From IMG/VR virus record IMGVR_UViG_3300020044_003916, positions 1 to 35,815 of that record: DNA of 35,815 nt. One strand, given 5' to 3'. How positions within the stretch are numbered: the stretch's first letter is position 1; the number at the start of each line of letters is the position of its first letter. The stretch is from a virus (Duplodnaviria; Caudoviricetes). The translations under genes were made by a program, and so were the position numbers. Positions 7,133-22,004 of the stretch are shown here, piece after piece. The notes beneath the pieces are model-generated. The model was not told where the DNA came from. It saw only the letters and a program-made list of their open reading frames with translations, and did not search any database.

Positions 7133-7584
7133 ACATCACGCCGCACTTCACCCTTGAAGAACTGACTGTGTCCGAGACTGCCGAGCGCAATGGTTGGGAC
7201 AACAACCCCAATGGATACGAGCGTGAAAACCTTGCACGACTGGCCGATCTGCTGGAGCAGGTCAAGGTGGTGCTGGGCGGCAAGCCCATCATGATCAACA
7301 GCGCCTTCAGGTCCAAGCAGGTCAACGATGCCGTGGGCAGCAAGGACACCAGTCAGCACCGCATCGGCTGCGCGGCCGACATTCGCGTGCCAGGCATGAC
7401 GCCAGACCAGGTGGTGCGCAAGATTATTGCCAGCGGCATCAACTTTGACCAGATTTTGAGGGAATTTTCAGATCCAATTAATGGTGGCGGATGGACGCAC
7501 ATATCAGTGCCCAATACAGAATCAACGCCTTCAAGAAGACAAGCGTTGATTGTTGATGGGCTCGGAACTCGTCAATTTGCGTAA
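7129..7584 (+). CDS. Endolysin, peptidase M15 family (151 aa)
   Basis: HFTLEEL start, INSAFRS, SQH..G.AAD and WTHIS zinc-ligand motifs. Confidence 0.9.
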   Translation: MNITPHFTLEELTVSETAERNGWDNNPNGYERENLARLADLLEQVKVVLGGKPIMINSAFRSKQVNDAVGSKDTSQHRIGCAADIRVPGMTPDQVVRKIIASGINFDQILREFSDPINGGGWTHISVPNTESTPSRRQALIVDGLGTRQFA

Positions 7585-8069
7585 AACCACGCATAGCCTT
7601 TGTGGTGCGTTCTTTTTCCAGAAAGAACTAATTGAATGCATCCCTGATTAAATCCTTGTCGCGCAGCATCTGCTTGGGAATAAAAATGCAACTTTTCACC
7701 TGATGTTAGGTGTACACCATATACAGCTACGTTTGACTTGCAATCAATCCCACGTCTTCTGACAATCAATCCTGTTTCATTGGCATGCCTCATGTTTTCC
7801 AAGTGAGTGCATGCCTCTAAGTTTGCAAGACGATTGTCAGTCTTAATACCATTCTTGTGGTTTATTTCAAATCCTGCTGGTATCTTGCCAATATGTGTGG
7901 AATAAACTAGCCTATGAGATCTAAATGTAAATTGTTTTGCATCTTTGTATAAACGCACATGCAAATAGCCTTTTTTACTCTTAACTAGCTTTAAAAGTTT
8001 TCCGTTTCTTGAAAACTCACCTAGTTGTGAGCACAAATAATTTTCAAAGCCTTGTATTGGTTTCCACAT
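7572..8069 (-). CDS. Free-standing HNH homing endonuclease (NUMOD4-like N-terminus, HNH, NUMOD1-like C-terminus); ORF is open to 8093
   Basis: WKPIQGFENY, HRLVY..H, INHKNGIKTDNRLANLE, EN..HA, HKGYAW; AT-rich relative to the genome. Confidence 0.9.
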   Translation of the reverse strand: MWKPIQGFENYLCSQLGEFSRNGKLLKLVKSKKGYLHVRLYKDAKQFTFRSHRLVYSTHIGKIPAGFEINHKNGIKTDNRLANLEACTHLENMRHANETGLIVRRRGIDCKSNVAVYGVHLTSGEKLHFYSQADAARQGFNQGCIQLVLSGKRTHHKGYAWFYAN

Positions 8070-8105
8070 ATAACCCCATTCTTGGTTATGCATTCAATGA
8101 AGATT

Positions 8106-8153
8106 GTGGCAGGCAGTGAATGATTCTGCTTTTCCCCCGCTAAAGGTAGCCAC
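8106..8153 (-). ncRNA. Putative three-way-junction leader RNA, copy A
   Basis: GUGGC-UA-[CCUU UAGC GGGG]-GAAAA-[GCAG..CUGC]-CU-GCCAC; same architecture as 15052-15116. Confidence 0.6.
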
Positions 8154-8159
8154 GTTTTC

Positions 8160-8168
8160 ATTATAGCA
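8160..8168 (-). promoter_or_regulatory. Extended -10 promoter (TGCTATAAT) for the HNH leader
   Basis: Perfect TGnTATAAT on the minus strand, 6 nt before the structured element; no good -35. Confidence 0.6.
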
Positions 8169-8173
8169 TTCCC

Positions 8174-8620
8174 TTAAACGAAGCCGCGCAGATTTGGCGG
8201 CGTCCATCCATCGGGCTTCATGATCTTGCCGCCAGGCGCGATGATTGCCTTGCCGTCCACCAGCTTGGCATCATTGGAATCCAGCACGGCCAAATCGGCG
8301 GCATCCTTATCGAACCCAGCCAGATACGCCACGCCATTGCCCGTGACCTCGCTATCGCAAAGCGCATCCAGGGCATCAACGCGCAGGTGAACGGGGATGT
8401 AAACCGATTGCTCGCGTCGCTTGAGCTTCGATGCAAACCAAGTCAAATCCAGGCGCGTCCGGTCAAGCAGCTTGGCGTATCCCTCGCTGTCGGTGCGCAG
8501 ACATTCCAGCAGTTCGCAGAATTCCTCGATGTGCACACCAACCTGTGTCGAAACGTTTTCCGGGCTTGGCTCTTTTCCGCAAGCCTTCAGCCATGCCGCC
8601 GTGCGTTGAAAGTTGGTCAT
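8174..8620 (-). CDS. MazG-like all-alpha NTP pyrophosphohydrolase
   Basis: EEFCE...DALCD acidic motif, SN.AK, GKIMKPDGW.PP.L C-terminal motif. Confidence 0.8.
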   Translation of the reverse strand: MTNFQRTAAWLKACGKEPSPENVSTQVGVHIEEFCELLECLRTDSEGYAKLLDRTRLDLTWFASKLKRREQSVYIPVHLRVDALDALCDSEVTGNGVAYLAGFDKDAADLAVLDSNDAKLVDGKAIIAPGGKIMKPDGWTPPNLRGFV

Positions 8621-9486
8621 GCCTCACCCCCGAGCGCCTTTATTAACGAATCCACCAGCGGCCCAAACGTGCCCGTGAAAATCGCCACATCCGCATCGAA
8701 CGCATCTTCTTCGCGCTCGCCTGCGCCAGCATCCAGCAGGTTAATCTTTTTGATGCGCATGGAGTCCGTCAGCATGAATTCCGCCTGACCATCCCATTCA
8801 AGCCTAAGCGCCGTTGGCAACTTGCCTTCGCGCACATGGTTTCGCACTTCGTCGCAGTCCAGATTGTGGTGCGTGAATTTGACCTTGGCGCAGTCTTCGC
8901 CTATCGACTCGAGCAGGCAATCTCGGCCAATGCTGAAGCCGTAGGGCACTTCGTCATGATCACCCAGCAGCCAATCCGTCATGGCGCCTTGCGGGCTTTG
9001 CGTGGCCGTCACCAGGTAGAGCTTCATCGCAGGCATGGCCGCCAGAATCGCGCCCACAAAGTCGTCAGCGCGTGAGTTGCTGGCCGTGTCCACCACCATC
9101 AAGCCATCGGCCCGCAGCCAGGCCAAGACAGCGGTTTGCTTTGGGAATGCTTGGGGCAGCAGGGCAAGGCGGGCATCTTCTTTGATTTCGCGGATTTCCT
9201 TTTTGCCGGGCTTGCGGCCCTGGGTTTGCTCAATCTCATAAATGCGGTTTTCCACCTCATCGCGCAGGACTTTGCCGGGCACAGACTTGGTTTCGATCAT
9301 CAGTTTGACGATGCGCTCGCCATTGACAACCTCAATCATCGGCCCGTGGTTATGGCCGCGCGGCTCGATCCAGCCAACGGATTTCTCCTGCAAATCCCCG
9401 CAGGGAACAAAGGCGGGAAAGTCCGCGCTGTCGGGCGTCAAGGTTGATTCGATTTGGTATCGGTAAAGGGTGGCGTTTTTGAACAT
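8617..9486 (-). CDS. rdgC: Recombination-associated protein RdgC
   Basis: MFKNATLYR start, F.PCG....SVGW, GRKPGKKE..EIKED....LLPQAF, FDAD near the C-terminus. Confidence 0.9.
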   Translation of the reverse strand: MFKNATLYRYQIESTLTPDSADFPAFVPCGDLQEKSVGWIEPRGHNHGPMIEVVNGERIVKLMIETKSVPGKVLRDEVENRIYEIEQTQGRKPGKKEIREIKEDARLALLPQAFPKQTAVLAWLRADGLMVVDTASNSRADDFVGAILAAMPAMKLYLVTATQSPQGAMTDWLLGDHDEVPYGFSIGRDCLLESIGEDCAKVKFTHHNLDCDEVRNHVREGKLPTALRLEWDGQAEFMLTDSMRIKKINLLDAGAGEREEDAFDADVAIFTGTFGPLVDSLIKALGGEA

Positions 9487-9498
9487 GGTTTCTCCGGT

Positions 9499-10140
9499 TT
9501 AAAAAGTGTGCTCGTTGGCGATGCGCTCAATGACTTGGCGATAGTATTCGCGGCCAGCCTCGACCTTTTCCACGATCCTGGCCTCCATCGTTTTGTCGCG
9601 CTCTTGGTGCAGCAGGGTCACGCGCAACTCGGGCGCGATGTGGTCCACGATATGCAGCTTCGGATCTTCGTACCCGATCAATTCCTCGGGCGTGGAGACC
9701 AGGCAGTAAGCAATGGCCGCGCTGTCCACATCCCAAAGCCACATATAGGCGGCCAACTGCCACATGTAGGTTTTGTTTTCCCCATCCTCGGCAAGCGCCG
9801 GGAACGTGGCAAGCGACCACGACGACTTGATGTCGATGATCTTCGAGCCGGTGAAGATGTCGCACTCGCCGGTGATCCATTCGTTGGTTTTGCGCTCGGT
9901 GTTCTTTGCGTGGCTGGAAAACAAAACCGAGTTCAGCAACTCAATGGACTGATCCTCGCATTGAATGCCCTTGGTCATTGACTTGCTGGTGATACGCTCA
10001 TCGTACCCGTACACGGCTTCTTTTGCCATCTTGTTGATGGCAGTCTTGGCCCCGACCGAGAGCTTGTCGCTCTTGCTTTTGGGCTCGGTCATGATGTCGG
10101 CCAGCGACGATGCGCGAAAGATCAATTTATGGTCAAGCAT
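9499..10140 (-). CDS. YqaJ/lambda-exonuclease-like nuclease
   Basis: FRASSL..IM, KG...E, GECD....IIDIK, Y.WQL..YM PD-(D/E)xK motifs; coupled to ERF. Confidence 0.8.
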   Translation of the reverse strand: MLDHKLIFRASSLADIMTEPKSKSDKLSVGAKTAINKMAKEAVYGYDERITSKSMTKGIQCEDQSIELLNSVLFSSHAKNTERKTNEWITGECDIFTGSKIIDIKSSWSLATFPALAEDGENKTYMWQLAAYMWLWDVDSAAIAYCLVSTPEELIGYEDPKLHIVDHIAPELRVTLLHQERDKTMEARIVEKVEAGREYYRQVIERIANEHTF

Positions 10141-10714
10141 TTGCGAGCGCCTCCACGAGTACGGATTCCTGTTCTTCGGTCAGCGCAAAATCATTGCGCA
10201 GCTTCTCGGTGCTGTACTGCCCCGACTTGATCGACTCGACCGCCTTGGCAAAACGGGCGTTTGTCAGAGTTGGCTTTTTAGCCTCCACCTGGTGCGACTC
10301 ATGATCTGGATCGCCTTCGACCGGGATGCAGAACGCTTGGATGGCCGTGTATTTGTACGCCGCGCTCATCGCCTTGTTGGTCGACTTGTCGCCGCTGTCC
10401 ATGGCTTCGCCGTACATCTTGACGGTGTGCTTTGAGCCATCCTCTGCGCTGACAAAATCATATTCAACCTCGACCGTGGTGTAGAAAAGATTGCCGCCAG
10501 ACTTTGACAGCCGCTCCTCGCATGACCGGCTGATAACCCTCGGCAGGATGACCAGCTTATGGCGGGCCAGCAAAGGCGCAAGTGCGTTTTGCACATCGTC
10601 AATGCCTCGGAAGTTGAAGCCCGAGCCCTGTTGATTGCGGCGATTCTTGGCGATGCCGTGGGCGGAGATGTCGCTGGCGACCTCCGCAATGAGTTGATAG
10701 ACGTTCTTTGTCAT
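10133..10714 (-). CDS. erf: ERF-family single-strand annealing protein
   Basis: FNFRGIDDV, GEAMDSGDKSTNKAMSAAYKY...FCIP..GDPD signature. Confidence 0.88.
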   Translation of the reverse strand: MTKNVYQLIAEVASDISAHGIAKNRRNQQGSGFNFRGIDDVQNALAPLLARHKLVILPRVISRSCEERLSKSGGNLFYTTVEVEYDFVSAEDGSKHTVKMYGEAMDSGDKSTNKAMSAAYKYTAIQAFCIPVEGDPDHESHQVEAKKPTLTNARFAKAVESIKSGQYSTEKLRNDFALTEEQESVLVEALANA

Positions 10715-10759
10715 GGTCTCACTTTCATTGAATGGCCAGGCGGGATTGCCTGACGATTT

Positions 10760-10828
10760 ATTATAAACTGATTTCCAACGATTCCGGCAAAATAATTTTG
10801 CAAAGACAGAAAAAAATTAGGTTACAAT
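10760..10828. promoter_or_regulatory. Divergent early promoters with central operator-like palindrome GCAAAAT-A-ATTTTGC (10787-10801)
   Basis: Minus strand TTGCCG-N19-TATAAT (10790 to 10760); plus strand TTGCAA-N19-TACAAT (10798-10828); AT-rich gap between the divergent arms. Confidence 0.7.
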
Positions 10829-10856
10829 GCCACGAACCAACAAACATGGGGAAAAA

Positions 10857-11204
10857 ATGACAGAGCAAGAGATCACAAACGAATCCGTCAAGGTGCTGCG
10901 CAAATGGCTCGGCCTCGGGCAAGCCGAATTCTGGGGGCCTATTGGCGTCAAGCAAGCCGCCGCCTCGGGCTATGAAAGCAAGACCGGCATTCCCAAGCCC
11001 GTGCGCATCCTGGTGGTGGCCCGCTACATCTGCGGCCTGCACATCGACGCCGACACCAACGAAGGCGTGGCAAAGACCGCCAAGCTGGGCGCGATCCAGC
11101 AAAAGAGCATCAAGGCCAAAGCCATTGCAGGCGAGGTCAAGCAAGACCTGGCGAAAGCCGCCAAGTCAATCCAAACGGCGCATGACGCGCTGAGTTCATA
11201 CTGA
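10857..11204 (+). CDS. XRE-family HTH regulator (Cro/RsaL-like)
   Basis: LRKWLGLGQAEFWGPIGVKQAAASGYES..GIPKPV HTH pattern; the upstream ATG at 10827 overlaps the -10 box, so 10857 is preferred. Confidence 0.8.
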   Translation: MTEQEITNESVKVLRKWLGLGQAEFWGPIGVKQAAASGYESKTGIPKPVRILVVARYICGLHIDADTNEGVAKTAKLGAIQQKSIKAKAIAGEVKQDLAKAAKSIQTAHDALSSY

Positions 11205-11214
11205 AAGGCAAAAC

Positions 11215-11637
11215 ATGGCTCAAATCACTGGGGTTTTTAGGATCGGCAAAGACGCCGAGGTGCGATTCACGCCGCGCGGAGATGCTGTCGCTCAACTGTC
11301 CCTGGCCTACAACTACGGCAAAAAAGGCGACGACAACAAACGCCCATCGCAATGGATCGACGCATCCATCTGGGGCAAGCGCGCCGAATCGCTCGCGCCC
11401 TACCTGCTCAAAGGCTCGCAGATTTACGCCGTCCTGAGCGACCCGCACATCCAGACCCACGAAGGCAAAAACGGCCAAGGCCATAAGCTGGCCGCGACCG
11501 TGCTGGAGATTGAATTGATCGCAGGCCAACGCGACCAAGGCCAGCCCGCACAACGTCAAGAGCGACCAGCGGCACGGCCAGCGCCTGCGCCCGCATCAAG
11601 CGGCTTTGATGACATGGAGGATGATATTCCCTTTTGA
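11215..11637 (+). CDS. ssb: Single-stranded DNA-binding protein
   Basis: OB-fold motifs (GKDAEVRFT, WG.RAE.L..YL.KG) and acidic DDIPF tail. Confidence 0.95.
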   Translation: MAQITGVFRIGKDAEVRFTPRGDAVAQLSLAYNYGKKGDDNKRPSQWIDASIWGKRAESLAPYLLKGSQIYAVLSDPHIQTHEGKNGQGHKLAATVLEIELIAGQRDQGQPAQRQERPAARPAPAPASSGFDDMEDDIPF

Positions 11638-11644
11638 CTATTAC

Positions 11645-11750
11645 GGGCCGAAAGCGGATGCTGCACGGGACAGTTCGGATCCAACGCTCCAATTCAGGCC
11701 ACGGCCCCCATTGAACGGCGGGGAGTTCGTGCAGACGCAGCGAGTAGGCC
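11645..11750 (+). ncRNA. Putative structured intergenic RNA with loop-E-like internal loop
   Basis: GGGCC/GGCCC closing stem, GAAA/GAGUA internal loop, CUGCACGGG/UUCGUGCAG stem; followed by a U-tract. Confidence 0.55.
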
Positions 11751-11777
11751 CACCATTTTTTAACCAAGGAAAAGACC

Positions 11778-12137
11778 ATGAACGACCAAACCATCGAACA
11801 TGAAATCATCGCCAAGGGCAAAACCGCACCGCGCATCACGCCTGCCGACATCGAGGAAAACATCATCAAAGAGGTGTTTTTCACCGCTGCGGACGGCATG
11901 GCTGGAGCTTGGCGTAATGGCGAAGGCAAAAACCAAGGTTCAGTGAATACGGAGCATGAACTTCTGACGTTCTGCGTGCTGACTTTGCGCAACGGCTTTA
12001 CCGTCACTGGCGAGAGCGCTTGCGCCAGCCCGGAAAACTTCGACGCTGAAATTGGTCAAAAGGTTGCCCGCGCCAACGCAGTGCAAAAAATCTGGCCGCT
12101 GATGGGCTATGAACTGAAAACCAAATTGAATGGCTAA
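11778..12137 (+). CDS. Gp49-family (Phage_gp49_66) protein; probable anti-defence nucleotide sponge (Acb4-like)
   Basis: APRITPADIE and LTFCVLTLRNGFTVTGESACASPENFDAEIG..IW.LMGY signature. Confidence 0.8.
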   Translation: MNDQTIEHEIIAKGKTAPRITPADIEENIIKEVFFTAADGMAGAWRNGEGKNQGSVNTEHELLTFCVLTLRNGFTVTGESACASPENFDAEIGQKVARANAVQKIWPLMGYELKTKLNG

Positions 12138-12654
12138 ATTCACCATCCAACGCACCGGCCAAGCCATCCCAGCAGAACTGGAGGGCGCTCGCGCCCTTCT
12201 TTTCAAATGCTTTGAAGGCCGCACCGACGAAGACACATCCGCATGGAAAAAACTGTGGGCGCGTCTCATCAAATCCGAGCCCGGCCAGATCGTCAACATG
12301 GAGGCATCGTTCCCGCGAAACCTAAAATTCCACCGTAAGTTCTTTGCTTTGCTGAATCTTGGCTTTGAGGCATGGCAACCGGCGACCAAATTCAAAGGCA
12401 TGGAAATCGCCAAGGACTTCGATCAATTCCGCAGCGATGTGACGATCCTTGCTGGCTTCTACGAGCAGACCTTCACTCTTGATGGCGCCATGTCCCTCAA
12501 GGCCAAATCCATCGCCTTTGGCAGCATGGAAGAACCCGAGTTCGAGGCGCTCTACTCTGCCGTGGTGAACGTCCTCCTTCAGCGCGTGCTGACGACATAT
12601 GAAGACCGCGCCCAGTTGGATGCGGTGGTCGATCAAATCTTGTCGATGGCATGA
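12130..12654 (+). CDS. DUF1367-like (nin-region) protein
   Basis: RN.KFHRKFFALLNLGFE.W, FR..VTI.AG.Y, SIAF.SM...EF..LY motifs. Confidence 0.75.
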   Translation: MAKFTIQRTGQAIPAELEGARALLFKCFEGRTDEDTSAWKKLWARLIKSEPGQIVNMEASFPRNLKFHRKFFALLNLGFEAWQPATKFKGMEIAKDFDQFRSDVTILAGFYEQTFTLDGAMSLKAKSIAFGSMEEPEFEALYSAVVNVLLQRVLTTYEDRAQLDAVVDQILSMA

Positions 12655-12968
12655 GATTCCCAAAGCACGATTACGTCCGCAGCAAGACCCTGCTGCGCAA
12701 CGCCCGTGAGATTCCCTGCCAGCACTGCGGCGCTGACGACGGAACAATTTGCGCGGCCCATACCAATCACGGCGGCGGCAAGGGTCGAGGCATCAAGGCA
12801 AGCGACAACCTGATCGCCTCACTTTGTTTTCGATGCCACCATGCGCTCGACCAGGGCGCGGCCATGAGCAAAGCCGAGCGGATCGCCATGTGGGAGGATG
12901 CCCACCGAAAGACCGTGGACAAGCTGACAAAGCTGGGATTGTGGCCCGCCGACGTGCCCATCCCATAA
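12651..12968 (+). CDS. Zn-binding HNH-like nin-region nuclease (DUF1364/DUF968-like)
   Basis: CQHCG, AAH.N, GKGRGIKASD, LCFRCH motifs. Confidence 0.7.
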   Translation: MRFPKHDYVRSKTLLRNAREIPCQHCGADDGTICAAHTNHGGGKGRGIKASDNLIASLCFRCHHALDQGAAMSKAERIAMWEDAHRKTVDKLTKLGLWPADVPIP

Positions 12969-13012
12969 ATTACGATATAATAAAATTTTCATCAACAAAA
13001 CCAAACAAACCA

Positions 13013-13528
13013 ATGAAAGTTACACGAAAGAACGGCGACCCAATCACGATGGATTTGATCCGCGCTAAAAGCCACGAGGACGGCGATTGCCTGATTTGGG
13101 ATGGCGGCAAAGGTGCAGGCGTTCCATACATCCGCCAGCCCGGATTAAAAAACCTCATGCCCGTTCGCAGGTGGATTGCAATCAACGTTTTGGGCCTCAA
13201 AACCGATAAGCTGATGGCAAGCACGCTTTGCGGCAACCCGTCCTGCGTTGACCCTAATCACGTTGTGATGAAAAGCCGGTCAAGGCTGGTTGCAGATGCG
13301 GCTACCCGCACCCAGTACCACAAAAACCCGGTCCGAAATCTAAAGCTGGCCCTCGCTGCCCGCGCCCGCTCGCCTCACTCGCCCGAGTTGATTGAGCGCA
13401 TCCGAAACATGGAAGGCACGCACCGAGGCATTGCCAACGAGCTTGGCATCAACTTCGACGTGGTCAATCGGATCAAAAACGGAACTGGCTACAAAGAATA
13501 CAAAAACAACCCATGGGCTGGACTATGA
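13013..13528 (+). CDS. Degenerate HNH (His-Cys box-like) protein with C-terminal HTH
   Basis: DCLIWDG, CGNPSCVDPNHV, IANELGI..DVVNRIKNG; the His normally preceding CxN is absent (STLCGN); start chosen after the AT-rich spacer. Confidence 0.6.
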   Translation: MKVTRKNGDPITMDLIRAKSHEDGDCLIWDGGKGAGVPYIRQPGLKNLMPVRRWIAINVLGLKTDKLMASTLCGNPSCVDPNHVVMKSRSRLVADAATRTQYHKNPVRNLKLALAARARSPHSPELIERIRNMEGTHRGIANELGINFDVVNRIKNGTGYKEYKNNPWAGL

Positions 13529-13782
13529 GCATTTTTTTATGTGAAGGCCTTGAGGATCACGTTATCCGCAACGAGGATCACGCAGTCGTCATTGCAGGCC
13601 AAGGCTATTCCATCAAAGGCAAGATGCGTTGCATTTTGACCGACAGCGGCAACGGCTTTATTGCGCACTTTCCGTCGCATACATCAACGCACCAAGACAA
13701 CTATGTTTGCATGGATTACGGCCAGGCGCAGGCGTTGGTGATGGCGCTGTCTGCGTTCAAAAAAGAATTGGGGTTTGAATGA
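13525..13782 (+). CDS. Hypothetical protein
   Basis: ATGA coupling on both sides. Confidence 0.65.
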   Translation: MSIFLCEGLEDHVIRNEDHAVVIAGQGYSIKGKMRCILTDSGNGFIAHFPSHTSTHQDNYVCMDYGQAQALVMALSAFKKELGFE

Positions 13783-14243
13783 GAAAGCGCAGCGCATACC
13801 GACCCAAGCCGATCAGGGCCGATGCCGTGAACTACGTTTTGTCCGGCCTCAAGCCATTGACCGACAGCGGCGACGAACTGGCAACGCTCAAAATCAAAAA
13901 CCACGGCGCAATGGCCGCAACAGCACAAGGCCAAGCCACCCGCGACGACATGGACATCCTTATCGCGGCCACCAATATCTCTGAGGCGCTGGCGCTGGGC
14001 GGCATTGGCGCGGACTACAAGACCGAGATCCGAGCAGGCCAAGACGCATTGAAAGACCTTTGCGCCCGAGGCGTTGAGCGCGATGATCGGTTTGTTTTCA
14101 AGGCGCAGGAACTGGCCGCACTGAATCTCGCCATGGACATCCACGACGCCCAGCTTGAGGTTGTCACCGTGCAGCAACTTGAGCAGGCTATCGAGTACGT
14201 GAAAAAGGTCATCCGATCAGGCAAAGCAAGGAGAATCATATGA
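13779..14243 (+). CDS. Hypothetical helical phage protein (154 aa)
   Basis: ATGA coupling; phage-like codon usage. Confidence 0.7.
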   Translation: MRKRSAYRPKPIRADAVNYVLSGLKPLTDSGDELATLKIKNHGAMAATAQGQATRDDMDILIAATNISEALALGGIGADYKTEIRAGQDALKDLCARGVERDDRFVFKAQELAALNLAMDIHDAQLEVVTVQQLEQAIEYVKKVIRSGKARRII

Positions 14244-14491
14244 GCGAAGCATTAACCCGGGTCATTGCAGAACAGCAGGCCGAAATCGACCAATGGAAAT
14301 CACGGGACAAATACAACCTAGACGCCTGGGTTCGCGAAAACGAAAAACGCGAGGCTTTGGTCTCTGCTGTTTTTTCATACCTCAGCTACCCCGACGCAAC
14401 CGGCGTGCGGCAATCAGTCCTTGAGGCTTTGCGCGGCTACGGTTACTGCCTTGCCTGCGAGTGCAGCGATTGCGAGTGCGACGACGAATGA
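14240..14491 (+). CDS. Hypothetical protein with Cys-rich C-terminus
   Basis: AGGAG RBS, ATGA coupling, CLACECSDCEC tail. Confidence 0.65.
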   Translation: MSEALTRVIAEQQAEIDQWKSRDKYNLDAWVRENEKREALVSAVFSYLSYPDATGVRQSVLEALRGYGYCLACECSDCECDDE

Positions 14492-14694
14492 AACCAATCT
14501 GCGCACTTTGTGGCCGACCCACCAAGCCATTCGTCATGATCGGCCGCGAAGCCATCGGCCCGAAGTGCGCGGCCAAGGCTGGACTGCTGCCAAAATCATG
14601 GCGCAATAGTCGGCTGAAGTTCATCAAGCCCGCAAAGCCCGAAAGCAACGGCCAGGGCGACTTATTCGCAGACCAAAAGGAATCCAATGATTGA
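14488..14694 (+). CDS. Small Zn-finger-like protein
   Basis: CALCGR...IGPKCA motif; ATGA coupling. Confidence 0.6.
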   Translation: MKPICALCGRPTKPFVMIGREAIGPKCAAKAGLLPKSWRNSRLKFIKPAKPESNGQGDLFADQKESND

Positions 14695-15043
14695 ACTGAC
14701 CCTGCCATGGCCATCGCCAGACCTAAGCCCGAATTCGCGCGGCCACTGGGCAATCAAAGCCCGCGCCGCCAAAGCCTACCGCCAGGCCTGCTACATCACC
14801 GCAAAGCAGCAAGGCCTGACTCGCATTGACGCACCGCGCCTGCACGCCACGATCACGTTCTACCCACCATCCAGGCGCCGGATTGACCTGGACAACTGCA
14901 TCGCCAGGATCAAGCAAGCCATCGACGCCGTGGCCGAGATCAGTGGGGTTGACGACAGCAAATGGACGATGAGCTTTTCATTTGCTGGCGATGTCGGCGG
15001 GATGGTGAAAATAAACCTTGAGCCGATGCGAATGATTGGGTAA
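14687..15043 (+). CDS. rusA: RusA-like Holliday junction resolvase
   Basis: LTLPWP..LSPN, FYPPSRRRIDLDN...K...DA....GVDDS motifs. Confidence 0.85.
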   Translation: MIELTLPWPSPDLSPNSRGHWAIKARAAKAYRQACYITAKQQGLTRIDAPRLHATITFYPPSRRRIDLDNCIARIKQAIDAVAEISGVDDSKWTMSFSFAGDVGGMVKINLEPMRMIG

Positions 15044-15046
15044 AAT
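15018..15046 (+). promoter_or_regulatory. Sigma70-type promoter TTGAGC-N17-TAAAAT for the replication operon leader
   Basis: Exact 17-nt spacer; the -10 overlaps the rusA stop; the structured leader begins 6 nt downstream. Confidence 0.6.
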
Positions 15047-15051
15047 ATTCC

Positions 15052-15116
15052 GAAACAAGGCTAAGTTGGGACTGATCCCCTGACTGAAAAGCGAACTCCC
15101 CGCCTGCCTTTGTTTC
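15052..15116 (+). ncRNA. Putative three-way-junction leader RNA, copy B
   Basis: GAAACAAGGC-UA-[AGUUGGGA CUGA UCCCCUGACU]-GAAAA-[GCG..CGC]-CU-GCCUUUGUUUC. Confidence 0.6.
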
Positions 15117-15145
15117 TTTCCTGGGAGATTTGCGGAGATGCCATC

Positions 15146-15934
15146 GTGCATTATTACAAACGAAATCTTGGCGATTACGCCAAAAAATGTGGCCGTCTAT
15201 CCATGCTTCAGCACGGAGCGTACACGCTCTTGATTGATTCGTGCTACGACCGTGAGAAATTCCCAACGCTTGAGGATGCTATCGAGTGGACGTGGGCCAG
15301 CACCGAAGCAGAGATTGAAGCGGTCAAATTTGTTTTGGGCCGCTTTTTTACACTGTCACCAGATGGGGAATATGTGCAAGAGCGCATCCTTGCTGAGCTT
15401 CTTGAATACCACTCAAAAGCCGACACAAACAAACGAATTGCACAAGAACGCGAGGCGAAGCGTAAAGAAAAAAGCACGGGTCGTGCACAATCCGTGGACG
15501 ATGCGTCACCTAACCATAAACCACTAACCACTAACCAAGAACCACAAACCAAGAACCAAAAGAACAAAGCGGAAGCGCCTGACGGCGTATCCCCTGAAGT
15601 TTGGGATTCTTTTGTCAAGCAACGGAAATCAAAGAAAGCCCAAATCACCGACAACGTGTTGAGCGCCATTGATCGAGAGGCAAAAAAGGCAGGGTGGTCA
15701 TTGGATGCCGCATTGAATGAAATCGTGGTCAGGAACTGGCAGAGTTTCAAAGCTGATTGGGTGGCCGATAAACAAAATCAAACAGAGACCGTTTACCAGC
15801 GATCAATGCGACTCAAGATGCAGGAGGCCGTGCCAAGCATTGCAAAACAGGCGCCCGAACCCTACCAAGACGCCAGCGACTTTTTCCGCACCATTGACAT
15901 GGAAACCCAGAAAGCAATCGAGGTGAAAAAATGA
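15146..15934 (+). CDS. Replication initiator, YdaU/DUF1376 family (lambda O analogue), GTG start
   Basis: HYY.RNLGDY....L...HGAY.LLID..Y..E N-terminus; internal iteron region; W..F...RK and WQSF...W C-terminal motifs; GGAG before the GTG. Confidence 0.8.
   Translation: MHYYKRNLGDYAKKCGRLSMLQHGAYTLLIDSCYDREKFPTLEDAIEWTWASTEAEIEAVKFVLGRFFTLSPDGEYVQERILAELLEYHSKADTNKRIAQEREAKRKEKSTGRAQSVDDASPNHKPLTTNQEPQTKNQKNKAEAPDGVSPEVWDSFVKQRKSKKAQITDNVLSAIDREAKKAGWSLDAALNEIVVRNWQSFKADWVADKQNQTETVYQRSMRLKMQEAVPSIAKQAPEPYQDASDFFRTIDMETQKAIEVKK
15475..15560 (+). repeat. Probable replication origin: three 11-bp palindromic units (CACGnnnCGTG-like, 15475-15507) plus seven AACCAnn heptamers (15512-15560)
   Basis: cacgggtcgtg|cacaatccgtg|gacgatgcgtc, then aaccata aaccact aaccact aaccaag aaccaca aaccaag aaccaaa, inside the initiator gene as in lambdoid origins. 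Confidence 0.7.
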
Positions 15935-20109: not shown

Positions 20110-20292
20110 AATAGAGTCTTGATTGGCGGGGCTTTCCAATACTTTCAGACGGGGACGCTCACCTGTCAAAAAGCCCAAATGCCAGACCAGCGTCACCCGC
20201 CTGAGAACTCATGGCGCTGAGAGGTCAAGCACCGGAAGGCCGTAAGTTGTAAGGTGCAAATTTGGGAACGAGCAATTAACGAAAGAAAAAGC

Positions 20293-21090
20293 ATGAGCAA
20301 AAATCCAGCCGACAAAGTGGCAAAGTGGGGCATCGACAAACTGATCCCATACGCCAGGAACAGCCGAACGCACAGCGAGGCGCAAATCGCGCAGATCGCG
20401 GCCAGCATCAAGGAATGGGGATTCACCAGCGCCGTGCTGGTTGACCCCGAGGGCGGCATCATCGCGGGCCACGGGCGCGTTATGGCCGCACGCAAACTAG
20501 GGATGAAAGAAGTGCCGGTGATGGTGGCCGAGGGCTGGACGGACGCGCAAAAGCGGGCTTATGTCATTGCGGACAACAAGTTGGCGATGAACGCCGGGTG
20601 GGATGACGAGATGCTTGCCTTGGAATTTAAAGAGTTGCAAGATCTTGGATTCGGCATAGAGTTGATCGGTTTTAGCAAAGACGAAATTGCAGCCCTCATG
20701 CCCAAAGATCCAGACGATGATGGTGCTGACAGCAGCAAATACACCAAGAAGATCGACGCCCCCATCTACCAACCAACCGGCGACTGCCCACCCACAGCGG
20801 CCCTCTATGATCCGGCCAAGTACACCCAGCTAACGGCCCAGATTTACCAGAACAACGACTTGGCGCCAGAGGTCAAAGAGTTTTTGCTTCTGGCGGCCAC
20901 CAGGCACATCCGCTTCGACTTCGAGCAGATCGCAGAGTTCTACGCCCACGCAGACCCAGACACGCAGCAGCTCATGGAAGACAGCGCGTTGGTCATCATC
21001 GACTTCGACAAAGCCATCTCGGGCGGGTACGTCAAACTCTCCCAGGCCATCAGTAAAGTTTATGTCAGCGAAAAAGGCATTTCGCAATGA
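20293..21090 (+). CDS. ParB/Srx-like N-terminal domain fused to an uncharacterised C-terminal domain
   Basis: LIPYARNSRTH, SIKEWGF, IIAGHGR..AA, AY.IADNKL motifs; acidic linker then a distinct ~110-aa domain. Confidence 0.85.
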   Translation: MSKNPADKVAKWGIDKLIPYARNSRTHSEAQIAQIAASIKEWGFTSAVLVDPEGGIIAGHGRVMAARKLGMKEVPVMVAEGWTDAQKRAYVIADNKLAMNAGWDDEMLALEFKELQDLGFGIELIGFSKDEIAALMPKDPDDDGADSSKYTKKIDAPIYQPTGDCPPTAALYDPAKYTQLTAQIYQNNDLAPEVKEFLLLAATRHIRFDFEQIAEFYAHADPDTQQLMEDSALVIIDFDKAISGGYVKLSQAISKVYVSEKGISQ

Positions 21091-22004
21091 TTACCAAAGA
21101 TCGGAACTTTGCAGTTTTTATTCTTACTCATGGTCGGGCTCATCATGTTTACACCTATGAAGCCCTTCGCAAACACGGCTACACCGGCGAGATCTACCTC
21201 GTCTGCGATGACGAGGACAAACAGATCAAGCAATACCTGGCGCTCTACGGCCTCGACTCCGTGATCGTTTTCAACAAGCAAGAGGCCATCGACAACACCG
21301 ACAGCGGCGATAACCTCAAGAAGCGAAACAGCGTTGTTTATGCGAGGAATCAGAGTTTCAAAATTGCAGCCGAACTTGGTCTCACCCACTTTTGGCAGCT
21401 CGATGACGATTACACACGGTTTGATTATTCAACCAATGAGCAATTACAGTACATAACCAAAGAAAATAAGATCGGGAAACTCGATGATGTATTGGCCGCA
21501 ATGATTGACTTCATGGATGAAACGCCATTTCATTCAATTGCATTTGCGCAAGGGGGTGATTTTATTGGTGGAGAATATGGGGTTGTTTTGGCGAAAATGC
21601 GCAAAGATCAGATCTATCGCAAAGTAATGAATTCATTTCTATTCAGAGTTGACCGGCCAGTTAAATTTATGGGCCGTATCAACGAAGACGTCAACATGTA
21701 CGTTGAATGGGGTCGCCGTGGATTTCTTTTTATGACATCGCCGCAGTTGCGTTTGCAACAGAAAGAAACACAAGCTAATTCTGGCGGCTTAACTGATATT
21801 TATTTGGATCTCGGAACCTACGTGAAATCTTTTTATTCTGTAATTTATGCGCCATCATGCGTACATGTTGCCGAAGTTGGAACTAGTGATAGACATATTC
21901 ATCATCGAATCTCATGGCGGCACGCAGTCCCCATGATCCTTGACGAGCAGCATAGAAAGCCCAGGCTCTTGTCCCGCTACACCAACACAGTCCAGGAGAT
22001 GTGA
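21087..22004 (+). CDS. GREB1/TAGT-like (GT-A fold) glycosyltransferase
   Basis: VFILTHGRA, YARN, FWQLDDDY (DxD), GRINEDV, NSGGLTDIY motifs. Confidence 0.75.
   Translation: MITKDRNFAVFILTHGRAHHVYTYEALRKHGYTGEIYLVCDDEDKQIKQYLALYGLDSVIVFNKQEAIDNTDSGDNLKKRNSVVYARNQSFKIAAELGLTHFWQLDDDYTRFDYSTNEQLQYITKENKIGKLDDVLAAMIDFMDETPFHSIAFAQGGDFIGGEYGVVLAKMRKDQIYRKVMNSFLFRVDRPVKFMGRINEDVNMYVEWGRRGFLFMTSPQLRLQQKETQANSGGLTDIYLDLGTYVKSFYSVIYAPSCVHVAEVGTSDRHIHHRISWRHAVPMILDEQHRKPRLLSRYTNTVQEM

Follow-up and report, generated by a model that had tools for sequence, protein, structure and literature searches.

The c4 RNA of phages P1 and P7 is a structured leader RNA with two complementary sites on its own transcript, an arrangement comparable to the one described here. 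The family closest to the present elements is int-alpA (RF02996), typed in Rfam as Gene; sRNA, which has the same three-way junction and the same three stems (P1, P2, P3). This motif was reportedly first described in a survey of 224 motifs, and its name presumably refers to adjoining integrase or alpA genes. The word 'alpA' is absent from the main text of that survey (PMC5737381), and a functional study of int-alpA was not found in the literature searched, the supplement of the survey apart. The 3' tail of the Rfam model is complementary to the model's own consensus for L3, the loop of P3, and the nearer of the two downstream L3 complements considered here (site 1) therefore lies inside the model. 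The second complement (site 2), the hairpin P4 and the start codon lie outside it, and no self-pairing of L2, the loop of P2, is marked. The consensus is thus already catalogued; site 2, P4 and L2 self-pairing go beyond the Rfam model, though the survey supplement may describe some of them.

The 35,815-nt stretch of viral DNA analyzed in this study (the window) contains two such elements, copies A and B (Table 1). The earlier note had reported two junction RNAs, and both their pattern and their coordinates were confirmed: the full pattern GGC-UA-P2-GAAAA-GC..GC-CU-GCC occurs exactly twice in the window and in none of 100 dinucleotide shuffles, and a looser structure scan returned the same two elements only, with 0-1 matches per shuffled window (n = 10). 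Neither the covariance model nor the structure scan revealed further copies in standard wiring in the window. Both copies contain the junction letters CUA / GAAAAG / CCUG. The consensus, which the note had not recognized, belongs to int-alpA according to the Rfam covariance-model scan (five matches at E ≤ 5), so that the element stands and the novelty of its consensus is gone. Copy A matches the full model above the gathering cut-off (35.8). Copy B also aligns over the full model (1-71) and falls below the cut-off, with E-values of 0.027 against all Rfam families and 6.3e-6 against RF02996 alone; its score is lowered because its longer P2 is penalized, and we file it as a divergent int-alpA form. 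Among homologue records, 45 of 49 matched RF02996 (23 over the cut-off, 22 only under it). A hammerhead-like ribozyme was considered and rejected: the hammerhead core consensus is CUGANGA, GAAA and UH in that order, the junctions found here are UA, GAAAA and CU, the core order does not fit, and no Rfam ribozyme matched.

Table 1. Coordinates of features of the two int-alpA loci in the window.
Feature	Position	Strand	Basis or remark
NUMOD4-HNH homing endonuclease gene, 165 aa	7572..8069	-	Pfam NUMOD4, HNH_3, I-HmuI NUMOD-like; PHROG 59
Inserted AT-rich cassette (promoter, copy A, HNH gene)	7585..8173	-	between stop codons of two convergent genes
Copy A hairpin P4	8070..8089	-	fold -5.0 kcal/mol; directly before ATG 8069
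Copy A site 1, UGAAUG, complementary to L3	8091..8096	-	duplex -5.2 kcal/mol; family covariation
Copy A int-alpA three-way junction	8106..8153	-	RF02996 41.0 bits; fold
Copy A L3	8125-8117	-	sequence coordinates
Copy A P2	8146-8135	-	loop L2 UAGC at 8142-8139
Copy A predicted extended -10 promoter, TG-N-TATAAT	8160..8168	-	read from sequence; 6 nt before P1
Copy B predicted sigma-70 promoter, TTGAGC-17-TAAAAT	15018..15046	+	1 found, 0.3 expected in shuffles; 5 nt before P1
Copy B int-alpA-type three-way junction	15052..15116	+	RF02996 29.4 bits; fold z -2.95
Copy B P2	15064-15085	+	loop ACUGAUCC, palindrome GAUC 15074-15077
Copy B P3	15091-15103	+	within three-way junction
Copy B site 1	15123..15133	+	complementary to L3 and P3 5' strand; one mismatch, one bulge
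Copy B site 2, includes SD GGAG (15134-15137)	15134..15141	+	duplex -8.5; only 4 contiguous Watson-Crick pairs
DUF1376 (YdaU-type) replication initiator gene, GTG start, 262 aa	15146..15934	+	Pfam DUF1376; PHROGs primosomal protein and O-like initiator

The observation that the stems of the two copies differ and still pair was confirmed: both sequences fold as the junction, with copy B more stable than shuffles and copy A no more stable than its shuffles (z 0.03). The stems covary across homologues, and G-U exceeds A-C by 27 to 9. On bacterial genomes, a loose pattern gave mostly chance matches, 109 of the 120 failing the structure filter; 11 passed, and the counts include two of these (L148 and L167) that are probably false.

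Both copies start 5-6 nt after a -10 box, as had been noted from the sequence; the promoter scanner, which requires a -35 box, called the promoter of copy B and reported none for copy A. Across homologues a -10 box precedes the element in 54 of 81 cases, compared with 7 and 6 in control windows. Both copies are likely 5' leaders of the HNH and initiator mRNAs, transcribed from the promoter-like boxes just ahead of them, and the evidence favors such a leader over a free sRNA. Only 34 of 81 homologues have a U-tract with the potential to liberate a short form; P1 followed by the U-tract was rejected as a terminator, being not conserved and not called by the scanner at either copy. Public RNA data, found via one homologue (L037), comprised 23 contig sets and one raw-read run, and eight runs were examined. 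In the raw-read run 12 reads were placed, none overlapping the element. Coverage of a related element came from the contigs of one sample (two libraries), contigs being unable to show RNA ends. One contig ended inside P3 at a tag that we take to resemble a small-RNA adapter; the same tag occurred in another library in the opposite orientation and elsewhere.

The genes downstream do not match the context implied by the family name, since the window elements precede an HNH nuclease and a DUF1376 initiator, and among 76 homologue downstream genes two are integrases and none is AlpA; for int-alpA membership, neighbor-gene identity is context and not a structural criterion. The proposal that the RNA precedes DNA-acting genes fits 34 of the 42 genes with a Pfam family (initiators, nucleases, antirepressors or integrases) and does not extend to the 34 of 76 without a family or to a few others unrelated to DNA-acting functions. 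The view of the RNA as a portable promoter-proximal leader is supported. For the cassette of copy A, GC content is 0.39 (7501-8000), compared with about 0.55 around it, and in eight syntenic relatives promoter, RNA and gene are all missing and the flanking genes lie tail to tail. By these empty sites, copy A arrived together with the HNH cassette, as the earlier note had supposed. Only three distant relatives of the HNH protein were found, and in the two of these with the start covered no int-alpA element lies directly upstream.

The HNH gene most likely starts at ATG 8069, which coincides with the beginning of the NUMOD4 motif. As had been noticed earlier, GAAUG occurs twice before it: the first occurrence is site 1, which with L3 forms a predicted cis pseudoknot, and the second is site 2 (8081-8077; duplex with L3, -5.5), which lies in the loop of P4, a hairpin not noted earlier that holds the Shine-Dalgarno (SD) sequence and spacer in its 3' side. 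For copy B, complementarity between P3 and 15123-15133 was recovered, with one mismatch and one bulge (-13.2 kcal/mol with the whole P3); it represents the near site 1 and not the SD, which belongs to a second, shorter match. P4 of copy B is weak (local hairpin, -2.0). In the class of copy B, distinct P3 form at least five Watson-Crick pairs with site 1 in 15 of 15 cases and with site 2 in 4 of 15. The element precedes DUF1376 initiators in 51 of 79 homologues by a structure-driven search, which was used instead of a simple regex that found 12 elements in 81 homologues and missed most; among annotated phages, blastn gave no match to the region of copy B. The two copies are not fully orthogonal, as the loop of copy B pairs with the leader of copy A at -7.3 versus -8.9 with its own. 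Two candidate trans targets in the window were rejected: a 12-nt complement of copy B P3 (11718-11729), located in a variable stretch, is missing from the matching locus of a relative with identical P3, and an 8-nt complement of copy A L3 (15030-15037) is altered in the same relative. Both are treated as chance.

The complementarity of the P3 loop to the initiation region, proposed from the two copies alone, covaries across homologues and involves two sites in overlapping register. The main statistic used 87 distinct P3 from 122 unfiltered matches, because a strict P1 filter kept only 64 of the 122 and dropped one window copy. The mean run of L3 pairing was 5.38 at site 1 versus 3.36 for swapped loops (z 19) and 5.10 versus 3.82 at site 2 (z 12.7), with no signal in a control window (3.66 versus 3.61); the loci are related, so that z values overstate independence. 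The signal was kept in 15 loops with no 5-mer in common (z 8.4 at site 1, 6.6 at site 2) and, once anti-SD-like runs were excluded, in 26 loops (z 8.7 at site 1, 6.9 at site 2); these two groups are subsets of a stricter 44-loop set. In the 11 bacterial-genome matches at least 5 nt of L3 pair at site 1 in nine and at site 2 in eight, and the 109 structure-failing chance matches gave a null result. In all 69 cases with a match of at least 5 nt, site 1 starts 9-17 nt after P1 (searched window, 8-23). Site 2 overlaps an SD-like run in 40 of 63 cases and the start codon in nine, and L3 pairing there would be expected to block ribosomes. P4 encloses site 2 in 33 of 65 cases (nulls 22.5 and 19.7; maxima 33 and 30).

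L3 is hypervariable even where P2 is unchanged (one P2 is followed by 12 distinct P3), and it differs between copies of one genome in the window and in four two-copy records. Such diversity would define immunity groups if a short stable form, cut from the leader as in c4 and CI RNAs, silenced matching mRNAs in trans, among them mRNAs of superinfecting relatives, with L2 dimerization incidental. P4 CI RNA arises by processing of its own leader and has two pairing sites (PMC4825925, available portion), and the sRNA type given by Rfam points the same way. We nevertheless consider this reading improbable: the pairings span only 5-7 nt, no terminator is conserved, no c4/CI-type Rfam family matches, and both sites are downstream, unlike seqA and seqC, which flank CI.

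The second loop behaves differently. L2 is self-complementary in 26 of 37 distinct loops (null 6.9, maximum 17), and 60 of 75 distinct P2 contain palindromes (nulls 25.5 and 29.5, maximum 40), whereas self-complementarity of L3 (9 of 79 loops) is not above chance. The palindromes have ten different cores and are off-center in the hairpin in 55 of 60 cases, so that, as expected of a kissing loop, self-complementarity is kept through sequence change across the family; copy B has GAUC, and copy A (UAGC) only a GC dinucleotide, which allows a 2-bp kiss. Five P2 variants terminate in GACG, which in retroviral RNA forms a self-kissing tetraloop (PMC5874298, PMC516450, in the parts available). The L2 palindromes could alternatively serve a protein on DNA or RNA.

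If the element acted as DNA, the P2 palindrome would be an operator or cruciform beside the promoter and the direct repeats protein sites. A palindrome 10-30 nt after a -10 box stands where operators are typically located. The G-U bias on the sense strand, the off-center palindromes, an L3 that covaries with the repeats as their reverse complement, and one identical P2 ahead of unrelated genes make this highly improbable.

The two-site layout and the self-complementary P2 loop, both absent from the earlier note, point to an intermolecular step. The duplexes at sites 1 and 2 use at least three common L3 nucleotides in 63 of 65 cases; therefore one loop cannot fill both sites. The reading that we tentatively prefer, while giving it somewhat less than an even chance, is a 5' leader with feedback on RNA concentration. 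Within each molecule L3 would occupy site 1. Two leaders would associate via the self-complementary L2 loops, after which the L3 of the partner would cover site 2 at the ribosome-binding site (RBS), the dimer supplying two L3 loops for two sites on one mRNA, like a dimeric repressor on a tandem operator. Translation would proceed early, while transcripts are scarce, and would drop as leader RNA builds up. The stronger L3 duplex is at site 1 in 47 of 65 cases, and the L3 of a full-length partner would therefore be tied up. Since the partner needs a free L3, it may be a short processed or terminated leader without site 1, or else a full-length leader whose pairings are exchanged upon dimerization. 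Against the dimer reading also stand the minority of homologues with a U-tract, the 2-bp kiss of copy A, the weak site 2 in the class of copy B, the limited enclosure of site 2 by P4 and the incomplete orthogonality of the two copies.

The mutual exclusion of the two duplexes would also suit a two-state switch in cis: in a single molecule, L3 would alternate between an on state at site 1 and an off state at site 2 in response to a metabolite, an ion or a protein bound at L2 or at the conserved junction, and the RNA would be an orphan riboswitch or a protein-sensing leader. Identical junction letters are present in genomes titled Bacteroidota, Planctomycetes, Acidobacteria, Bacillota and Acinetobacter, although they are part of the search pattern and the junction varies in protein-selected homologues; corrinoid riboswitches place a kissing loop onto an RBS-linked hairpin (PMC10327014, in the portion available). 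A cis switch gives no reason for L2 self-complementarity through ten different cores, and the downstream genes share no common pathway, so that we regard it as unlikely; if true, int-alpA would be an orphan riboswitch widespread in phages, and its expression platform would now be mapped. Rather more doubtful is a constitutive or kinetic damper without a signal, in which the folded leader lowers initiation or allows each transcript a brief period of translation until L3 comes to rest on site 2. RBS-sequestering hairpins hold down T-even homing endonuclease genes (PMC2988022, available text), and P4 of copy A alone partly hides the SD, but site 1 is the first to form and in most cases the stronger duplex, which disfavors drift to the off state, and L2 is left unexplained. 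This damper seems to us quite improbable.

The dimer reading in its most specific form, that int-alpA is a protein-free dimeric translational autorepressor whose leader of approximately 90 nt counts its own copies through L2 kissing and puts a second, gene-specific L3 onto the RBS, is one that we hold more cautiously still, as a possibility of roughly one in three. It would provide portable, re-programmable negative feedback for phage initiators, antirepressors, integrases and homing endonucleases, and specificity would be encoded twice and independently, in L2 for the partner and in L3 for the target. Although int-alpA is catalogued, the literature searched gives it no function, and covariation singles out three loops or sites. 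If the dimer model is true, self-association of mRNA would let bacteria-infecting viruses sense gene dose without a protein, which bears on the restraint of phage initiators and homing endonucleases and would offer a small orthogonal feedback part for synthetic biology.

Compared with known systems, int-alpA resembles P4 CI RNA with its seqA and seqC and Gifsy-1 IsrK, which are likewise structured RNAs in their own leader with two complementary sites on the same transcript and control phage replication or antirepressor genes (PMC4825925, available portion). Complementarity to two sites on its own transcript is thus found in int-alpA as in c4 and CI, with both sites downstream and not flanking; fold and sequence differ, none of the five Rfam matches (E ≤ 5) is to the c4/CI families, one loop pairs over 5-7 nt, and the second loop is self-complementary. 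Retroviral dimerization loops share with L2 an off-center palindrome of 4-6 nt or the GACG tetraloop of MuLV (PMC5874298, PMC516450, parts available), but they are genome-packaging signals, whereas int-alpA is a predicted bacterial or phage mRNA leader with a putative dimer. RNA structure also limits translation of the T-even homing endonucleases I-TevI, mobE and segB, whose RBS hairpins P4 resembles; there the structure is a simple hairpin, which a late promoter bypasses (PMC2988022, available text), in contrast to the three-way junction, covarying loop and non-nuclease genes of int-alpA. In the corrinoid riboswitch, a loop of the upstream domain kisses a downstream RBS-governing hairpin (L5-L13), as proposed for L3 (PMC10327014, portion available), while int-alpA has no B12 box and no known ligand, is a much smaller RNA and possesses a competing near site.

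The window is a complete virus record of 35.8 kb encoding P22-like portal and coat proteins, terminase, RdgC, ERF, SSB, and RusA, and both of its leader elements are real. Copy A, ahead of the HNH gene, is a member of the known orphan family int-alpA (Rfam RF02996; 41.0 bits, cut-off 35.8), and copy B, ahead of the DUF1376 initiator gene, is a divergent form of it (29.4 bits, under the cut-off). The earlier note had not recognised the consensus, which the Rfam search names for both copies. Its description of the two three-way junctions was accurate: the window has two instances of the pattern, none of 100 shuffles has any, and a -10-like box lies 5-6 nt ahead of each copy. The fold is more stable than shuffles for copy B (z -2.95) and no different from them for copy A (z 0.03), so the case for copy A rests on homology. 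The RF02996 search of homologues covered 49 of 119 records, of which 45 match, 23 over the cut-off, and 4 have two copies, compared with 0/14 control genomes. At locus L245, two same-strand copies 586 bp apart have CCUUG in both L3 loops (the loops of stem P3) and could therefore cross-react. In the literature excerpts available, int-alpA denotes a gene order, or the RNA is listed without test, and the accession RF02996 occurs in no paper.

The survey that is reportedly the source of the family lacks 'alpA' in its main-text keyword passages; its supplement may already note some features.

Features of the window and of homologous loci
Feature	Coordinates or loci	Strand	Remark
int-alpA copy A	8106-8153	-	
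NUMOD4-HNH endonuclease gene	8069-7572	-	downstream of copy A
Insertion with copy A	8173-7585		589 bp
Hairpin	11645-11762	+	3' of ssb
Second HNH-like gene	13007-13528	+	no int-alpA copy ahead
int-alpA copy B	15052-15116	+	
DUF1376 replication initiator gene	15146-15934	+	downstream of copy B
ParB-N domain gene, then lower-GC TAGT gene	20254-22004	+	just before terminase
Two int-alpA copies	L245 (G025:C1:13334-13989)		
Rz regions lacking the element	L412:1030-1042, L415, L416		cf. L037:1508-1518
Alternative leader	L370:1085-1203, L339, L388, L399, L382		
Alternative leader, by eye	L371, L375, L387, L389, L391, L394		

A pattern scan of viral contigs yielded 120 loci out of an estimated 1900; adding the two window copies brings this to 122 matches, in which 87 distinct P3 have enough sequence downstream. 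As the earlier note had proposed from two copies, pairing is kept despite sequence change: in the 87, unfiltered, variable stem positions pair far above shuffled columns. P2 pairs 1-3 form in 78, 78, and 73 (shuffle maxima 70, 60, and 54). In P3 the inner pair forms in 77 (maximum 61), and in P1 the first outer pair forms in 73 (maximum 54). Each of these positions shows five or six types of pair; P2 pair 4 and P3 pair 2 lie within the shuffle maxima. In 54/81 structure-passing elements, a TAnnnT hexamer lies upstream, its end 7-17 nt from the junction (control windows: 7 and 6), so the RNA is likely the 5' end of its mRNA. DUF1376 accounts for 19 of the 76 downstream proteins, which were picked mechanically after leaving out three loci without a usable frame. 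A further 7 are nucleases of the HNH type or similar, 4 are antirepressors, 2 are integrases, and 2 are other replication proteins; 8 are miscellaneous, and 34 fall in no family. Elements ahead of Rha/AntA antirepressor genes in Acinetobacter-type prophages (L020, L054, L070, L084, L090, L202) form a class with a long P3, a site 2 (the farther L3 target, described below) that covers the AUG itself, and a preceding terminator-like hairpin instead of a clear -10 box.

The complementarity of P3 to the downstream initiation region, also claimed earlier, extends in the homologues to two L3 targets, both beyond loops swapped between loci. The longest Watson-Crick run of P3 averages 5.38 at 8-23 nt after P1 (site 1; swapped loops 3.36, z 19) and 5.10 at 21-48 nt (site 2, at the RBS; swapped loops 3.82, z 12.7), compared with 3.66 versus 3.61 in a control window. 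The site windows were set after inspecting these viral loci themselves, so later locus sets weigh more. Among 11 structure-passing matches in bacterial genomes, sites 1 and 2 reach at least 5 nt in 9/11 and 8/11, and 109 chance matches there gave no L3-site signal. DUF1376 loci picked by protein carry the element in 51/79; in this class (15 distinct P3), site 1 matches at least 5 nt in 15/15 and site 2 in only 4/15 (site 2 mean run 4.53 versus 3.76, p 0.0005). Three second copies not picked by pattern have both sites by eye. The same loop nucleotides serve both duplexes in 63/65, and site 1 is the stronger in 47/65. Site 2 overlaps an SD-like run in 40/63 and the start codon in 9; a small hairpin, P4, carries it in its loop in 33/65, modestly beyond two nulls. 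The full layout is clear in copy A; in copy B, site 1 is strong and site 2, on the SD, is weak. Whatever the trigger, int-alpA is probably a leader RNA that controls translation by way of L3. Separately, in three phages without the element after Rz, 11 nt of the Rz stop/next start region are perfectly complementary to the L3 of the element found there in L037; this may be a coincidence or a target in trans on a competing allele.

L2, the loop of P2, tends to be self-complementary. A palindrome of at least 4 nt is centred there in 60/75 distinct P2 hairpins, compared with 25.5 and 29.5 in two nulls; every one of the 75 has either such a palindrome or a GC/CG step. Among 37 distinct L2 loops, 26 contain a 4-nt palindrome, compared with 6.9 in the null and at most 17 over its 5000 trials, and ten different cores occur; palindromes in L3 loops are at chance level. 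Copy B has GAUC, and copy A has UAGC, whose GC step, in register with the CG of GACG, allows only a 2-bp kiss. GACG ends five P2 variants.

The earlier suggestion that the HNH cassette brought its own RNA agrees with relatives of the gene upstream of copy A. An M15 peptidase lies within 2 kb in 16 of 80, and in 8 of these the two genes converge until their stop codons overlap, with promoter, RNA, and HNH all absent; this HNH occurs downstream in 0/80. The 589-bp stretch is thus a single insertion including its own promoter and leader. In L025 and L039, the P2 of copy A recurs ahead of other HNH genes. Copy B is the resident kind.

Observed are the family identity, the stems, the position, the complementarity to two sites, the self-complementary L2, and the mobility; the rest of the mechanism we infer. 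A single L3 cannot fill both sites, whose registers overlap. L3 would occupy site 1 of its own molecule, so that the RBS stays free; the nearer site presumably forms before site 2. L2-L2 pairing would then recruit a second L3 to site 2, so that accumulation of leader RNA would shut translation. Such dimer-based feedback is a tentative proposal, somewhat short of even chances, and the simplest reading that uses the overlapping registers, the nearer site being first and stronger, and the retained self-complementarity of L2; a cis switch driven by a ligand or protein is rather unlikely, and a damper without signal decidedly so. The weak point of the dimer reading is the source of free L3, plausibly a putative short form, and a U-tract that could yield one is found in only 34/81 elements. 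A processed antisense RNA of the c4/CI type is also unlikely, more so than the ligand or protein switch, and a DNA operator is most improbable.

Other elements were noted alongside. Upstream of its DUF1376 gene, L356 has a strongly diverged int-alpA-like junction (UU + GACAG replacing UA + GAAAA; no Rfam match at E<=0.5) that by eye still has GAUC as a loop and two sites matching L3. About 11/28 DUF1376 homologues without int-alpA have, in the slot equivalent to window 15052-15145, another kind of promoter-proximal leader, also a three-way junction, whose terminal U-tract lies just ahead of the ATG. Five aligned copies show compensatory change in 16/32 pairs, and on inspection by eye changes in a 5' heptamer are matched in the junction loop (UUGGCGG/CCGCCAA, UUGACGG/CCGUCAA, UUGGUGG/CCACCAA, UUGGUCG/CGACCAA). 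None of the six tested matches an Rfam family at E<=0.5. The leader may be an uncatalogued RNA standing in for int-alpA. The hairpin 3' of ssb has conserved internal loops (GAAA/GAGUA beside GGAUG/ACGCA) around a variable insert, then a U-tract; its frame is retained with other inserts in L419-L421, with no Rfam match and a fold z of ~0. The ParB-N gene and the TET-associated glycosyltransferase (TAGT) gene together suggest DNA base modification.

The anatomy of int-alpA suggests an unusual feedback based on dimers and makes the function of the family directly testable. Functional RNA oligomers are called rare in a review of RNA dimers (PMC7357161), and no leader under the control of dimerisation, from phage or bacteria, turned up in the literature searched, which is weak evidence of absence. 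GACG, the tetraloop that ends the five P2 variants, makes loop-loop contacts in murine leukaemia virus RNA (PMC5874298, PMC516450). The likeness to P4 CI RNA drawn in the earlier note holds in that both pair with two sites of their own transcript (PMC4825925), but not as membership. T-even endonuclease hairpins likewise guard the RBS (PMC2988022), and in corrinoid riboswitches a loop similarly kisses an RBS-linked hairpin (PMC10327014); int-alpA belongs to none of these three systems.
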